IMG/VR virus record: IMGVR_UViG_2799112923_000001
DNA length: 64,000 nt
Direction: 5' to 3' (one strand)
DNA from: a virus
Lineage: Duplodnaviria > Heunggongvirae > Uroviricota > Caudoviricetes
The notes beneath the pieces are model-generated. The model did not search any database, had not been told where the DNA came from, and saw only the letters and a program-made list of their open reading frames with translations. Of the stretch, positions 9,609 through 61,613 are shown piece by piece. Position 1 is the first letter of the stretch. The number at the start of each line of letters is the position of its first letter. The position numbers and the translations under genes are program-made.

Positions 9609-11210
9609 ATGAATTTAGGTTTTCTTAATCCATTCAGTGATAAATTCCTACAACCGGAACCAGAACATCAAATGCAGCGTCAGGCCGATGCCGCATTAAA
9701 TTCATTTGGTAAAAGTGAAGATGCAGTAGACTGGAGACGATTAACACATGGCTATCTTAATGGTTATGTGGAAGGTCAAGATGTTTATGATTCTTCAGGA
9801 ATTTTGTTTGAACAAGTTTTCAATTCTAAAAGACAAAGAATTAACTGGTATCGTAATCTAGCATTATATCCATTCGTTAGAAAATGTTTGACTATGATGG
9901 CAGACGAAGCATGTTGCGAAAATGCTTTGGGTGAAGTAGCAGTATTTGATATTGACAGAAGTGTTAAATCCAAATTCACTGAAACAGAGTTAATGACTTT
10001 GCGTGATGAATTTAACTACATTATTAACCAGGTATTTGGTAAAGAACAGTTATGGTATTACTATTATAAATGGTTGGTTGATGCTGAGTTGTTCCTAGAA
10101 ATTTGTTTGAATACCGAAGGTGATAGAGTTGCTGGCATTAAATGTTTGCCACCATACTGCACAATGTGTGTATATGACGATGGTATATTACACGGGTTCA
10201 TAGAAGATGTTAAGTTATTGAATCCTGATTATGATGAAGATGCCAAAACATTTACCACAAACCAAATTGCTTATGCTAACTATGGGTTCTGGGGAAATAA
10301 CAAGAATGATATACGCGGTCACTTGGAACCAGCTATTAGACCAATTAACCAATTAAGAGCCATTGAAGATGCTCTAACAGTATATCGTATCACCCGTGCC
10401 CCTGAAAAGAGAATTTTCAAGATATACACAGGTAAATTACCAACCTCTAAGGTTCCTGAGTATATGCAGGAAATTCGTTCCAAATACAGAAAACAATTAA
10501 CTATTGACCCTGTAACTGGTATGATACAAAGTAATAACAATGTTCAGGCTTTCGTAGAAGACTTCTGGCTATCACAAGATGCTGATGGTCAAGGTTCTAG
10601 TGTTGAATCATTCAAGGGTTCTACCGAATTTAATGGTCAGTTAGACGATGTTAAAATGTTCCGTGAACAAGTCGCTGACGCATTGATGGTACCTCCATCA
10701 AGATGGCAAAATGGTGAAGGTGGTGGTTCACCATATTCACAAGGTGTAGAAGGCTTAACATTGGAAGAAGCTTCTTTCCAAAAACTCAATAAGAGATTGA
10801 GAAGAAAGTTTGCCGATATTATCTATCAGGTCTTTATGGTACATTTACAGGTTCGTGGATATGATAGTAAGTATCTTGATAAAACCATTTACCATATTGA
10901 TTTGATTCCAGCTACCGACTTTGAACTCATGCGTGCTTTATCAATGTGTGAAAAGAGAGGTGGTGTAGTTGGTTCATTCTCCCAATTCTTACCAACATTG
11001 AACAATGTTAAACCTGGTTCCGAAGAAGCTCCACCATTGTTCTCTCGTCAATTCTTCCTAGAAGATATTTTGGGCTTAACTAGCGAACAACGCATTAGAA
11101 ATGACCGCTTAATTGAAGAAGAAGCTCAATCTATTATGGCAAAAGCTGACGCAGCTAAAGAAGAAGGTGGCGGTGAAGAAGAAGGTGAAGATGAAGATTT
11201 AGGATTCTAA
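9609..11210 (+). CDS. Portal vertex protein (T4 gp20-like)
   Basis: NQLRAIEDALTVYRITRAPEKRIFKI, EDFWL and ALMVPPSR are gp20 motifs. Confidence 0.95.
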   Translation: MNLGFLNPFSDKFLQPEPEHQMQRQADAALNSFGKSEDAVDWRRLTHGYLNGYVEGQDVYDSSGILFEQVFNSKRQRINWYRNLALYPFVRKCLTMMADEACCENALGEVAVFDIDRSVKSKFTETELMTLRDEFNYIINQVFGKEQLWYYYYKWLVDAELFLEICLNTEGDRVAGIKCLPPYCTMCVYDDGILHGFIEDVKLLNPDYDEDAKTFTTNQIAYANYGFWGNNKNDIRGHLEPAIRPINQLRAIEDALTVYRITRAPEKRIFKIYTGKLPTSKVPEYMQEIRSKYRKQLTIDPVTGMIQSNNNVQAFVEDFWLSQDADGQGSSVESFKGSTEFNGQLDDVKMFREQVADALMVPPSRWQNGEGGGSPYSQGVEGLTLEEASFQKLNKRLRRKFADIIYQVFMVHLQVRGYDSKYLDKTIYHIDLIPATDFELMRALSMCEKRGGVVGSFSQFLPTLNNVKPGSEEAPPLFSRQFFLEDILGLTSEQRIRNDRLIEEEAQSIMAKADAAKEEGGGEEEGEDEDLGF

Positions 11211-11283
11211 ATTTACACACTATAATATAATAATCAATGGTGGTTTCTGTAATGAAGCCACCATTTTTTATAAATACATTATA

Positions 11284-11745
11284 ATGGGAGATAAATTTAT
11301 GGAAGTAGTAATGACAAAAACAGCTCCAGCAGATTTTTTAACATTTTTAGCAAGCTCACAAAATAATGAAGTAGAAAAACTCTATACTTTTGCAGTTGAT
11401 TCTCTCGTATTTGCCGATAAAATTAACATTTATCATTGGCAGTGCGAAAGTGGTTTCCAACATACTCAATTTGAAGCACTATATGATGTAATTCGTGATT
11501 TTGGTGATAAACTTGTAGAAACAGTTCTTTCTATGGGTATTCCATTCAAAATGACCAGCAAAACATATAACATAAATGACGAATTATTTGATTTGAATGG
11601 TGCTTTAATCAAGATAGAAGCATTTAGAGATGAATTGGAAAATCTAAAAAGAGCATATAGCACTAAAATTAGTCTTGAAAATTTGTTTGGTGATACCATT
11701 GAACAAATTGATAAAATCGTTGGTTTGTTAAAGAACTTCAAGTAA
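11284..11745 (+). CDS. Dps/ferritin-like four-helix protein
   Basis: YHWQ...QH...LYD...DKLVE pattern; alternative start at 11299. Confidence 0.7.
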   Translation: MGDKFMEVVMTKTAPADFLTFLASSQNNEVEKLYTFAVDSLVFADKINIYHWQCESGFQHTQFEALYDVIRDFGDKLVETVLSMGIPFKMTSKTYNINDELFDLNGALIKIEAFRDELENLKRAYSTKISLENLFGDTIEQIDKIVGLLKNFK

Positions 11746-59625: not shown

Positions 59626-59689
59626 ATTTTATTTGTTTTTCCGGCGTAACAAATTAAATCCATTGGACTAAAATCCAATGGATTTTTTT
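59616..59689 (+). promoter_or_regulatory. Attenuator: mutually exclusive antiterminator (59616-59637:59648-59670) and terminator (59656-59667:59674-59685 + U run)
   Basis: TAGTCCGTAGATTTTATTTGTT is near-complementary to AACAAATTAAATCCATTGGACTA; perfect 12-bp stem AAATCCATTGGA/TCCAATGGATTT. Confidence 0.8.
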
Positions 59690-59700
59690 ATTACTCTTTT

Positions 59701-59737
59701 GCTGGTAAGCCAGTAGTGGAGAAACCACTTAAAAAAC
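59701..59737 (+). ncRNA. Double-hairpin RNA element, copy 1
   Basis: GCTGG-TAAG-CCAGT AGTGG-AGAAA-CCACT TAAAAAAC. Confidence 0.65.
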
Positions 59738-59744
59738 AAATTAT

Positions 59745-59819
59745 GGCCCTATCGTCTAGTTTTGGTTAGGACACAAGAATTTCACTCTTGAAACACCAGT
59801 TCAAATCTGGTTGGGGCTA
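59745..59819 (+). tRNA. tRNA-Glu(TTC)
   Basis: CAAGA-atTTCac-TCTTG anticodon arm; TTCAAAT T-loop. Confidence 0.9.
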
Positions 59820-59834
59820 CTAACAAACTAATAT

Positions 59835-59907
59835 GGTACTGTAGAATACTTGGTTAGTTCGCTGCCCTTTCAAGGCGGAAAAGAGAGTTCAAATCTCTCC
59901 AGTACTA
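59835..59907 (+). tRNA. tRNA-Glu(TTC)
   Basis: CTGCC-ctTTCaa-GGCGG. Confidence 0.9.
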
Positions 59908-59920
59908 CTAACAAATTAAT

Positions 59921-59994
59921 GGGTGTGTGGTGAAGTGGTTTAACACACCGGTCTGTCTAACCGGCATACGCGGGTCCGAATCCCGCCATACTCG
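59921..59994 (+). tRNA. tRNA-Asp(GTC)
   Basis: CCGGT-ctGTCta-ACCGG; G73. Confidence 0.9.
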
Positions 59995-60006
59995 CTAAAA
60001 CATTTT

Positions 60007-60080
60007 GGTTTCGTGGTGAAGTGGTCTAACACATTGGTCTGTCTAACCAACATTCGTGGGTTCAAATCCCACCGGAATCG
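60007..60080 (+). tRNA. tRNA-Asp(GTC)
   Basis: TTGGT-ctGTCta-ACCAA; G73. Confidence 0.9.
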
Positions 60081-60090
60081 TACAAATTAT

Positions 60091-60166
60091 GGGCTTGTAG
60101 TTCAGTCTTTGGTAGAACGCCGCACTTGCACTGCGGAGGTCATGGGTTCAAATCCCTTCAGGTCCA
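60091..60166 (+). tRNA. tRNA-Ala(TGC)
   Basis: CCGCA-ctTGCac-TGCGG; G3:U70. Confidence 0.92.
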
Positions 60167-60181
60167 CTACATACAAATTAT

Positions 60182-60254
60182 TCCACCTTAGATCAGTTGG
60201 TAGATCAGGGCACTGTTAATGCCTTAGTCCCAGGTCCGAGTCCTGGAGGTGGAG
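60182..60254 (+). tRNA. tRNA-Asn(GTT)
   Basis: GGGCA-ctGTTaa-TGCCT; G73. Confidence 0.9.
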
Positions 60255-60268
60255 CGAAAACAAAAAAT

Positions 60269-60305
60269 GGTGGTAATCCACTGGTGCTGGAAGCACCTTA
60301 AAAAC
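60269..60305 (+). ncRNA. Double-hairpin RNA element, copy 2
   Basis: GGTGG-TAAT-CCACT GGTGC-TGGAA-GCACC TTAAAAAC. Confidence 0.65.
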
Positions 60306-60308
60306 TTG

Positions 60309-60382
60309 GCCCTCTAATCCAAATCCAGTGATTGGACCGGACTGAAAATCCGAGAAGCTGCGGGCGGCACGCAGAGTGGGCA
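60309..60382 (+). tRNA. Atypical tRNA-Phe(GAA)
   Basis: CGGA-ctGAAaa-TCCG; T arm CTGCG-GGCGGCA-CGCAG (non-canonical loop). Confidence 0.7.
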
Positions 60383-60394
60383 CGAACAAATTAT

Positions 60395-60467
60395 TCCGGT
60401 ATAACTCAACTGGTAGAGTGTTTCCTTCATACGGAAAAAGTTGTAGGTTCAAATCCTACTACCGGGA
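60395..60467 (+). tRNA. tRNA-Met(CAT) (elongator; Ile2 not excluded)
   Basis: TTTCC-ttCATac-GGAAA. Confidence 0.8.
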
Positions 60468-60479
60468 CTAACAAATTAA

Positions 60480-60555
60480 CTCTCCTTCGCCTAGCTGGTT
60501 TATGGCACCTGTCTTACAAACAGGAACAACCTTGGTTCAAATCCAAGAGGGGAGA
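60480..60555 (+). tRNA. tRNA-Val(TAC)
   Basis: CCTGT-ctTACaa-ACAGG; A73. Confidence 0.85.
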
Positions 60556-60558
60556 TAC

Positions 60559-60629
60559 TGCCCATTGGTGTAATGGTAACACGGCTCGCTCTGACCGAGC
60601 AATCAGTAGTCCGAATCTATTATGGGCAA
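60559..60629 (+). tRNA. tRNA-Gln(CTG)
   Basis: GCTCG-ctCTGac-CGAGC; U1:A72. Confidence 0.88.
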
Positions 60630-60641
60630 CGAACAAATTAT

Positions 60642-60718
60642 CGGCAACTATCTCCTCGCTCTGATAAGGCGTTGAAAGAGTAAATGGTTACATGTAGGTT
60701 CAATCCCTATGTTGCCGA
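60642..60718 (+). tRNA. Atypical tRNA-Ile(GAT)-like RNA with no D arm at the normal position
   Basis: Acceptor CGGCAAC/GTTGCCG, CGCT-ctGATaa-GGCG, normal T arm, long 3' insertion. Confidence 0.7.
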
Positions 60719-60722
60719 CTAT

Positions 60723-60796
60723 CGCCCGGTGACGGAACTGGCATACGTGTCTGCCTTAGAAGCAGAATTTTGAGAGTTCAAATCTCTCCTGGGCGA
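60723..60796 (+). tRNA. tRNA-Leu(TAG), short variable loop
   Basis: TCTGC-ctTAGaa-GCAGA; A73. Confidence 0.88.
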
Positions 60797-60808
60797 CTAA
60801 ACATTTTT

Positions 60809-60893
60809 GGAGGTGTGGCAGAGCGGCTTATTGCGTCGGTCCTGAAAACCGAAGATGGTAAAACATCCGTGGGTTCAAATCCTACCACCTCTT
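60809..60893 (+). tRNA. tRNA-Ser(TGA)
   Basis: TCGGT-ccTGAaa-ACCGA; long variable arm; C33. Confidence 0.85.
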
Positions 60894-60901
60894 CTACTTA
60901 T

Positions 60902-60974
60902 ACTCTCGTAGGCTAACTGGATAAACCACTGGACTACGAATCCGGCATTGAAGGTTCAAATCCTTCCGAGAGTA
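60902..60974 (+). tRNA. tRNA-Arg(ACG)
   Basis: CTGGA-ctACGaa-TCCGG. Confidence 0.92.
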
Positions 60975-60988
60975 CGAACAAATTATTT

Positions 60989-61062
60989 GTGGCTATATCA
61001 TAGTCTGGTTAATGAGCCTGTTTACCAAACAGGTTACCTGGGTTCAAATCCCAGTAGCCACT
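60989..61062 (+). tRNA. tRNA-Gly(ACC)
   Basis: CCTGT-ttACCaa-ACAGG; U73. Confidence 0.82.
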
Positions 61063-61070
61063 TACCAAAT

Positions 61071-61159
61071 GCTTATGTGACCCGAGTCTGGCGAAGGGGG
61101 CGGTCTGCAAAACCGTTGTGTTTACAGCACCATCGTTGGTTCAAATCCAATCATAAGCT
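61071..61159 (+). tRNA. tRNA-Cys(GCA) with long variable arm
   Basis: GCGGT-ctGCAaa-ACCGT; U73. Confidence 0.85.
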
Positions 61160-61163
61160 CTAT

Positions 61164-61234
61164 ATCTCATTGGTGTAACGGCAGCATGGCTGGTTCCAAC
61201 CCAGTTGGTGGGGGTTCAAATCCTTCATGAGGTG
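61164..61234 (+). tRNA. tRNA-Trp(CCA)
   Basis: GCTGG-ttCCAac-CCAGT; G73. Confidence 0.88.
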
Positions 61235-61247
61235 CGAAAGTAAATAA

Positions 61248-61319
61248 GTCCTATTGGTGTAGCTGGAAACATGGCAGTCTTCCAAACTGGTGTCGCGGGT
61301 CCGAACCCCGCATAGGGCT
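61248..61319 (+). tRNA. tRNA-Gly(TCC)
   Basis: CAGT-ctTCCaa-ACTG; U73. Confidence 0.85.
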
Positions 61320-61338
61320 CTACAAACAAACTATCATC

Positions 61339-61412
61339 TCCGTATTAGTGTTAATTGGTTAGCACGCAAGTTTGTGGCACTTGTAGTCTGAGTTCAAATC
61401 TCAGATATGGAA
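61339..61412 (+). tRNA. tRNA-His(GTG)
   Basis: CAAGT-ttGTGgc-ACTTG; lacks encoded G-1/C73. Confidence 0.82.
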
Positions 61413-61415
61413 TAT

Positions 61416-61487
61416 ATCTCCGTATGTCAATGGTTAGACGAGCAGACTCTTAATCTGTGGATCTGGGTCCGAATCCCAGCGGGGGTA
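61416..61487 (+). tRNA. tRNA-Lys(CTT)
   Basis: GCAGA-ctCTTaa-TCTGT. Confidence 0.88.
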
Positions 61488-61501
61488 CGAACAAATTAAA
61501 T

Positions 61502-61574
61502 GGGCTTACATGTTCCTTGGAGGCGAATCTCCCTAGCACGGAGATTGTGATGGGTCCGATTCCCATTAGGTCCA
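61502..61574 (+). tRNA. tRNA-Ala(AGC)
   Basis: TCTCC-ctAGCac-GGAGA; G3:U70; weak D arm. Confidence 0.78.
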
Positions 61575-61583
61575 CGAAATCAT

Positions 61584-61613
61584 AACTGGTAAACTTTTGT
61601 TTACCAGTTTTTT
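61584..61613 (+). terminator. Terminator closing the tRNA operon
   Basis: AACTGGTAAAC-TTTT-GTTTACCAGTT followed by a T run. Confidence 0.85.

Follow-up and report, generated by a model that had tools for sequence, protein, structure and literature searches.

What does a repeated pair of small hairpins do inside the tRNA operon of a large phage? The window analyzed here, a stretch of 64,000 nucleotides from a tailed virus (IMG/VR record IMGVR_UViG_2799112923_000001), carries two copies of such an element among its tRNA genes. A reading made from the sequence alone had taken them for an antitermination or processing signal of a long untranslated transcript.

Two copies of the element in one tRNA array

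Both copies are 37 nt long, lie on the + strand and consist of two abutting hairpins with an A-rich tail. Copy 1 (59701-59737) is located between the first terminator and the first tRNA-Glu, and copy 2 (60269-60305) between tRNA-Asn and a tRNA-Phe-like gene. In copy 1, hairpin 1 (59701-59714) has a UAAG loop on a 5-bp stem closed by G.U, and hairpin 2 (59715-59729) has a 5-bp stem with an A-U closing pair and an AGAAA loop. An A-U-closed hairpin 2 marks the subtype that we call C1, to which copy 1 belongs and in whose other members the loop of hairpin 2 is variable. The 8-nt A-rich tail of copy 1 (59730-59737) is single-stranded and is followed by a 7-nt A/U-rich spacer (59738-59744) that resembles the usual inter-tRNA spacer and ends at the predicted RNase P site; its 3' part matches the generic inter-tRNA spacer of the array. 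Copy 2, of subtype C2, is composed of hairpin 1 (60269-60282; 5-bp stem, UAAU loop), hairpin 2 (60283-60297; 5-bp stem, UGGAA loop) and an 8-nt A-rich tail (60298-60305). The stem core and loop of its hairpin 2 are conserved in sequence among C2 copies, the tail reads UWAAAAAC in all of them, and an invariant UUG linker (60306-60308) leads to position 1 of the next tRNA.

The layout that the sequence-only reading had described, a 5-bp stem with a UAAN loop, an abutting 5-bp stem with an NGRAA loop and an A-rich tail, was indeed found in both copies. The three compensatory pairs listed between them (C-G/G-C, A-U/G-C and G-C/C-G) are each altered on both sides. ViennaRNA returned the two hairpins as the minimum free energy (MFE) structure of each copy, with modest z-scores of -2.2 and -2.9. 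A degenerate pattern fitting both copies had two matches in 64 kb, namely the copies themselves, and none in 100 shuffles. No more copies of hairpin 2, such as might serve as a protein operator, were found elsewhere in the window. Within the window clade only, the U-tract and T-rich stretch after the terminator (59680-59745) can pair with hairpin 2 of copy 1; this alternative MFE structure is not conserved in other lineages. As far as the predicted fold goes, such pairing might tie copy 1 to the upstream attenuator.

The tRNA array extends from 59745 to 61576 with all genes co-oriented, and 18 tRNAs were called in it by ARAGORN and Rfam. A leader ORF and a strong terminator (59656-59692) lie upstream of the array, and a second terminator (~61586-61612) lies downstream. 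The replicon that hosts the array is a large myovirus-like phage, as the window encodes portal, baseplate and tape-measure genes. Its portal protein shows only ~27% identity to known myoviruses or any deposited phage, and megablast and blastn searches with the array against deposited phages returned no close relatives. None of the array tRNAs encodes CCA, and the inter-tRNA spacers (59821-61500) mostly contain a ACAAATTA-like motif following a TA/GA trailer.

Three additional tRNA-like genes in the array escaped ARAGORN and Rfam. The non-canonical tRNA-Phe(GAA)-like gene downstream of copy 2 (60309-60382, + strand) received no call from either program; it folds into a cloverleaf in which the T loop is non-canonical and the D arm odd, and fills the slot held by tRNA-Phe or tRNA-Pro in homologues. 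Most relatives have a canonical tRNA-Phe(GAA) at this slot. The odd gene is also present in L009, L113, L025, L123 and L207, where its acceptor stem shows compensatory changes. An uncalled Ile-GAT-like gene (60641-60719), in which the arm order is rearranged, is kept in L004, L005 and L011, and a canonical tRNA-Ile is found instead in L003, L006 and L008. At the array end, an uncalled tRNA-like gene with an AGC anticodon loop (61503-61576) is 97% identical to its counterpart in L001 (7060-7138), although L001 is otherwise very diverged. The sole stem difference between the two is a compensatory pair in the anticodon stem.

Homologues, covariation and strand

Homologues were collected along two routes. 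One led from a 152-aa neighbour protein to its relatives and the contigs of those relatives; the protein had no relatives in the viral contig collection, and a large protein database supplied them. The other consisted of degenerate pattern scans, with the stems set to N, of viral contigs, species genomes and metagenomes. Together with a covariance model derived from 34 distinct sequences, these scans found at least 93 copies of the element, at least 44 of them distinct, on viral, metagenome and MAG contigs. The model gave 77 copies in 62 loci a score of 43 bits or more, and the next best hit reached 14.8 bits. Among the metagenome pattern matches listed, 46 had 10/10 pairs and the remainder had 7 or fewer. 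A match of the first loose pattern in L002 sits in a coding region and was discarded as a chance hit.

The viral contigs that carry the element are 139 to 424 kb long. No copy was present in 50,697 deposited phage genomes or in clearly bacterial DNA of the species genome collection. Five copies did occur in the genome collection, on four MAG contigs and all inside tRNA arrays; three of these contigs are shorter than 3 kb, and the fourth, of 57 kb, belongs to a goat-reticulum bin. With Rfam 15, tRNA was the only family at gathering score in the window, and the same was true of 11 related loci among 150 of 160 matches listed. Even at E values up to 10, no family, preQ1-I, pistol, ANTAR targets and T-box included, covered the element as such in the window; the sub-threshold matches over copy 1 came from far longer models and scored well below their gathering scores, and copy 2 had none. 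A literature search returned no report of such a tRNA leader. A covariance-model search of the kind proposed with the sequence-only reading has yielded further homologues with covariation in related contigs, and Rfam gave no match. The element is a real and apparently undescribed RNA motif of tRNA arrays in large uncultured gut/rumen phages.

In a model-based alignment of 33 distinct homologues, all 327 of the 327 pair cells held standard pairs. Double-sided changes occurred at 5 of the 10 pairs, with 11 additional pair types. When the partners were slid by 1 to 3 columns as a control, pairing was 28-64%. The selection on structure that had been suggested by the three pairs differing between the window copies is thereby borne out at the level of the family. 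Hairpin 1 exists in 14 versions that always have 5 bp; some of the stems are wholly different and one group has a triloop, so that structure is conserved here and sequence is not. Of the 33 sequences, 24 close this hairpin with G.U, 7 with G-C and 2 with A-U. Because the G.U pair only works on the tRNA strand, the element acts as RNA of that strand, and every copy is indeed co-oriented with the next tRNA.

Hairpin 2 is conserved in sequence as well. Its three-pair stem core is invariant even where the search pattern left the stem free; in C2 copies, the same holds for the YGGAA loop and the UWAAAAAC tail, which a scan imposing neither of them recovered without variation. C1 copies differ among themselves in the 3' end and in the hairpin 2 loop, both in its sequence and in its length (5-7 nt). 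Two other explanations of conserved features were examined and rejected. Many copies have an ATG across their start, but others, such as those of L023, L025, L116, L123 and L148 and copy 1 of the window, do not, and a small ORF is also opposed by the compensatory changes. Complementarity between tail and loop, which could have indicated a pseudoknot, was not consistent among the variants when the alignment was inspected by eye.

Partner tRNAs and spacing

The position of the element follows a strict grammar. C1 copies lie 5-7 nt upstream of tRNA-Glu(UUC) in 17 of the 17 evaluable copies listed; in the window this partner is the gene at 59745-59820 (+ strand). C2 copies lie exactly 3 nt before their partner gene, with the UUG linker between, in 69 of the 71 copies listed. 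Their partners are tRNA-Pro(UGG) in 48 cases, tRNA-Phe(GAA) in 16 and the odd Phe-like gene in 5, and the 3-nt spacing is unchanged where Phe stands in for Pro. The exception is one distinct sequence (L023/L201), in which an ORF has been inserted directly behind the tail; in L023, it is a homing-endonuclease-type ORF that separates the element from the tRNA. Altogether, 86 of the 88 evaluable copies listed are situated as a pre-tRNA leader would be, on the tRNA strand and at a fixed short distance from position 1 of the tRNA.

The upstream side, in turn, is unconstrained. About half of the copies lie within arrays and follow another tRNA, often Asn, at 8-16 nt; others are preceded by a terminator or by unrelated structured RNA of 74-350 nt. 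Contigs with two matches always carry one C1 and one C2 copy in a tRNA array. Since both subtypes occur in one phage in several cases (e.g. L016, L035, L134 and L157), either the duplication is old or the cassettes move together.

Some partner genes have no element, such as the second tRNA-Glu of the window (59835) and further tRNA-Pro genes of L016. The relatives L008-L011 have kept the leader ORF, the terminator and the tRNA array, and C1 is entirely absent from them. In L003, a homing-endonuclease-like ORF occupies the C1 position. Because these tRNA-Glu and tRNA-Pro genes and L008-L011 do without it, the element is not required for tRNA maturation as such. Homing-endonuclease-type ORFs (DUF559/NUMOD3, HNH) are found between tRNA genes in many related arrays, for example at 10939-11691 and 12120-12782 in L003 and at 750-1540 and 2290-2960 in L001.

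A larger non-coding RNA that includes the element was considered and rejected, as the upstream 75-350 nt are non-homologous between lineages. ROOL, GOLLD and other Rfam families were not seen in the related arrays among the matches listed. Other structured segments were observed in some of these arrays. In L219 (11290-11636; also in L222, L226 and L227), a strongly structured non-coding RNA of ~340 nt with a fold z-score of -4.8 lies between a consensus sigma-70-type promoter and an element with tRNA-Pro. It has no Rfam match, a search around L219 at E values up to 1 having returned tRNA matches only, and it could be a separate new non-coding RNA. In addition, a conserved segment of ~75 nt lies between tRNA-Asn and the element in L017 (7308-7382) and in L082, 74 nt upstream of the element. 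This segment forms a long-range stem around two hairpins and is 93% identical between the two lineages.

Candidate functions of the element

Our preferred reading, to which we give a probability of roughly 40% on the sequence comparisons above, is that the element serves as a module of the pre-tRNA 5' leader whose action is coupled to cleavage by RNase P. It would be transcribed from the + strand within a polycistronic tRNA precursor, as a leader shaped like a dumbbell of two abutting 5-bp hairpins with an unpaired A-rich tail, and this leader ends 3 nt (C2) or 5-7 nt (C1) before nucleotide 1 of a particular tRNA. The A-rich stretch of 11-15 nt that precedes the RNase P cleavage site may be kept unstructured by the stable hairpins, which would also prevent upstream RNA from pairing with the site. 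Cleavage by RNase P would then remove the module and give it a defined 3' end. Because the distance to nucleotide 1 of the tRNA is fixed, even after tRNA exchange, the element is linked to the site at which RNase P cleaves; we infer that RNase P cuts this leader and that maturation benefits. In predicted precursor folds, the dumbbell and the cloverleaf were both intact and the tail was unpaired. Pairing of the UUG linker with the tRNA trailer was also considered; it is present in L016, but the trailers of the other lineages inspected cannot pair in this way. As for the two roles offered by the sequence-only reading, processing agrees with the fixed distance to the tRNA 5' end, and antitermination fell away for the reasons given below.

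Structured leaders are known to matter for RNase P. Leader structure and pairing in the distal leader alter RNase P rates by 10-fold or more (PMC10731613). The leaders of the valV-valW type described there likewise carry hairpins in the 5' leader within a polycistronic precursor, the distance of the hairpin to the cleavage site matters, and RNase P removes the hairpins. However, the known leader hairpins are idiosyncratic, lie ~2 nt from the cleavage site and are inhibitory (PMC10731613), whereas the element is a conserved mobile module with conserved loop and tail sequences that is placed 11-15 nt upstream and is found only in phages.

The leader module does not account for the fact that sequence, too, is conserved in hairpin 2, its loop and the tail. 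For a pure insulator, the conserved stem core of hairpin 2, the YGGAA loop and the tail would be superfluous. RNase P is not known to contact hairpins as far as 11-15 nt ahead of its cleavage site. The conserved sequence of hairpin 2 and the tail points to a specific factor that may also read the element.

For this reason, a model in which the dumbbell itself is the product stays alive; we regard it as possible, if rather doubtful. According to this model, an abundant small RNA of ~45-55 nt would act in trans, for instance by titrating, as a decoy or sponge, an RNA-binding protein or nuclease of the host or the phage. Its ends would come from 3' processing of the upstream tRNA and from RNase P at the downstream tRNA, which would merely be a handle for 3'-end formation. 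A specific reader would account for the conservation of the hairpin 2 stem core, the YGGAA loop and the tail across very different phages, and the UUG linker is invariant irrespective of the tRNA that follows, while the tRNA itself can do without the element. RNAs made from tRNA operons have precedents in the 3'ETS-leuZ spacer, the stable RNAs of the T4 tRNA cluster and the RNase P-made 3' ends of MALAT1/mascRNA. In the E. coli 3'ETS-leuZ sponge, species 1 and 2 of T4 and MALAT1/mascRNA, a non-tRNA segment is likewise part of a tRNA transcript and has its ends set by tRNA-processing enzymes; the element differs from them in its much smaller size, its fixed 3-nt linker and its lack of sequence similarity. 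However, the loop of hairpin 2 and the 3' end are variable in C1 copies, and an unprotected A-rich 3' tail is expected to be trimmed fast. No other 3'-end device, such as a terminator, accompanied the element in our scans. The complement of the tail was not enriched in the window, where trans targets were sought by this complementarity. Furthermore, no common RNA-binding gene was found nearby; the neighbours of the arrays shared only homing endonucleases and otherwise consisted of lineage-specific ORFs.

Somewhat more doubtful still is the idea that a phage or host protein reads the conserved hairpin 2, the YGGAA loop and the tail, the dumbbell being its phage-specific recognition handle or decoy. 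Candidates for this factor would be a nuclease, a defence sensor, or a protein that modifies or protects tRNA. The phage would in this case draw on the neighbouring tRNA and RNase P to make the RNA in bulk or to bring the factor to tRNA-Glu, tRNA-Pro and tRNA-Phe.

That the element has no function and simply travels as a passenger with exchanged tRNA-Glu and tRNA-Pro cassettes, be it the remnant of a decayed tRNA or a hairpin spacer, is improbable. The tRNA segments are far more alike between these phages than the proteins are, C1 is dispensable in some relatives, and the layout loosely resembles the 3' half of a tRNA, with two arms and 8 nt, all of which would suit such a passenger. However, the repeated compensatory changes with 100% pairing, the invariant loop and tail, and the exact spacing that survives a tRNA swap argue for purifying selection on the element itself.

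We consider it very unlikely that the element mimics a host defence RNA, either as a solitary CRISPR repeat (an RNA anti-CRISPR) or as a single type III antitoxin unit. The likeness is one of geometry: the element has a hairpin of 5 bp and 5 nt, an 8-nt A-rich tail ending in AAAC, a total length of 37 nt and A-rich flanks. A Cas6-type repeat with its handle is roughly a hairpin plus exactly 8 nt ending in AAAC, and ToxN-family cleavage sites are flanked by A-rich sequence; such repeats and antitoxin units are also ~37 nt long. However, the element, which is always fused to a tRNA, has two separate hairpins where those RNAs have a single one or a pseudoknot; the CptI and tenpI antitoxins, by comparison, are tandem pseudoknots. 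Neither 185,579 species genomes nor the metagenome matches listed contained regularly spaced arrays of the pattern, and in 401 genomes from the order of one MAG bin the counts equalled the control. No close match to the repeat of a host array emerged, as there were no multi-copy, regularly spaced matches. The copies are also single, with no bacterial tandem counterpart of the kind expected for a ToxI, CptI or TenpI antitoxin.

Processive antitermination, in which put-like or nut/boxB-like hairpins, with or without a protein, modify RNA polymerase for terminator read-through, we regard as most improbable. The element does recall put and boxB, which are also small hairpins of nascent RNA: put has two adjacent hairpins, and boxB has a 5-bp stem with a purine-rich pentaloop. 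In addition, in the window clade and in the lineage of L016, L160 and L200, C1 lies behind a terminator and a T-rich, loosely boxA-like stretch. However, HK022 put is ~65-70 nt long, consists of two long stem-loops and is located between a promoter, which it follows directly, and the terminators that it suppresses, and the nut site of lambda combines boxB, with its GAARA pentaloop, with a conserved boxA a few nt upstream. The element, at 37 nt, differs from put in size and placement, and its loop, YGGAA in C2 and variable in C1, is not GAARA, so that the likeness to put and boxB claimed in the sequence-only reading did not stand; Rfam, too, gave no hit. The boxA-like string before copy 1 does exist in the window, but it is merely a T-rich stretch behind the terminator, is confined to terminator-proximal copies, is absent from copies behind a tRNA, and is not a conserved part of the element. 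The position of the element follows tRNA 5' ends and not promoters or terminators: about half of the copies, copy 2 included, are array-internal and right behind another tRNA, and a fixed distance of 3 nt or 5-7 nt to the tRNA 5' end would serve no purpose in antitermination. A scan from copy 1 to the array end detected no terminator-like site to be read through. The element is, furthermore, dispensable where the terminator is kept, as shown by the loss of C1 from L008-L011 and its replacement by an ORF in L003.

Least credible of all is a DNA-level site, either for a dimeric protein or for recombination at two adjacent palindromes. Each hairpin is indeed an inverted repeat in the DNA, but the G.U and U.G pairs become A.C mismatches on the opposite strand, the stems are free to vary provided that pairing is kept, and the element has a fixed orientation and distance with respect to the tRNA that is transcribed.

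Little is known about how the transcripts of the big tRNA arrays of large phages mature or what else these arrays contain. The motif described here is compact, backed by covariation and common to very different uncultured phages, including those on contigs of more than 400 kb, and its grammar is unusually strict, with a partner tRNA specific to each subtype and a fixed spacing. If the element is the processing module that we prefer, phages would adjust how individual tRNAs of an array mature. If it is instead a released RNA with a partner of its own, tRNA arrays would double as factories of small effector RNAs, and a recognition handle or decoy would amount to a new class of small RNA effectors that phages carry within their tRNA arrays. 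Either way, the element offers a defined and mutable experimental target of 37 nt and a candidate new RNA family for curation.
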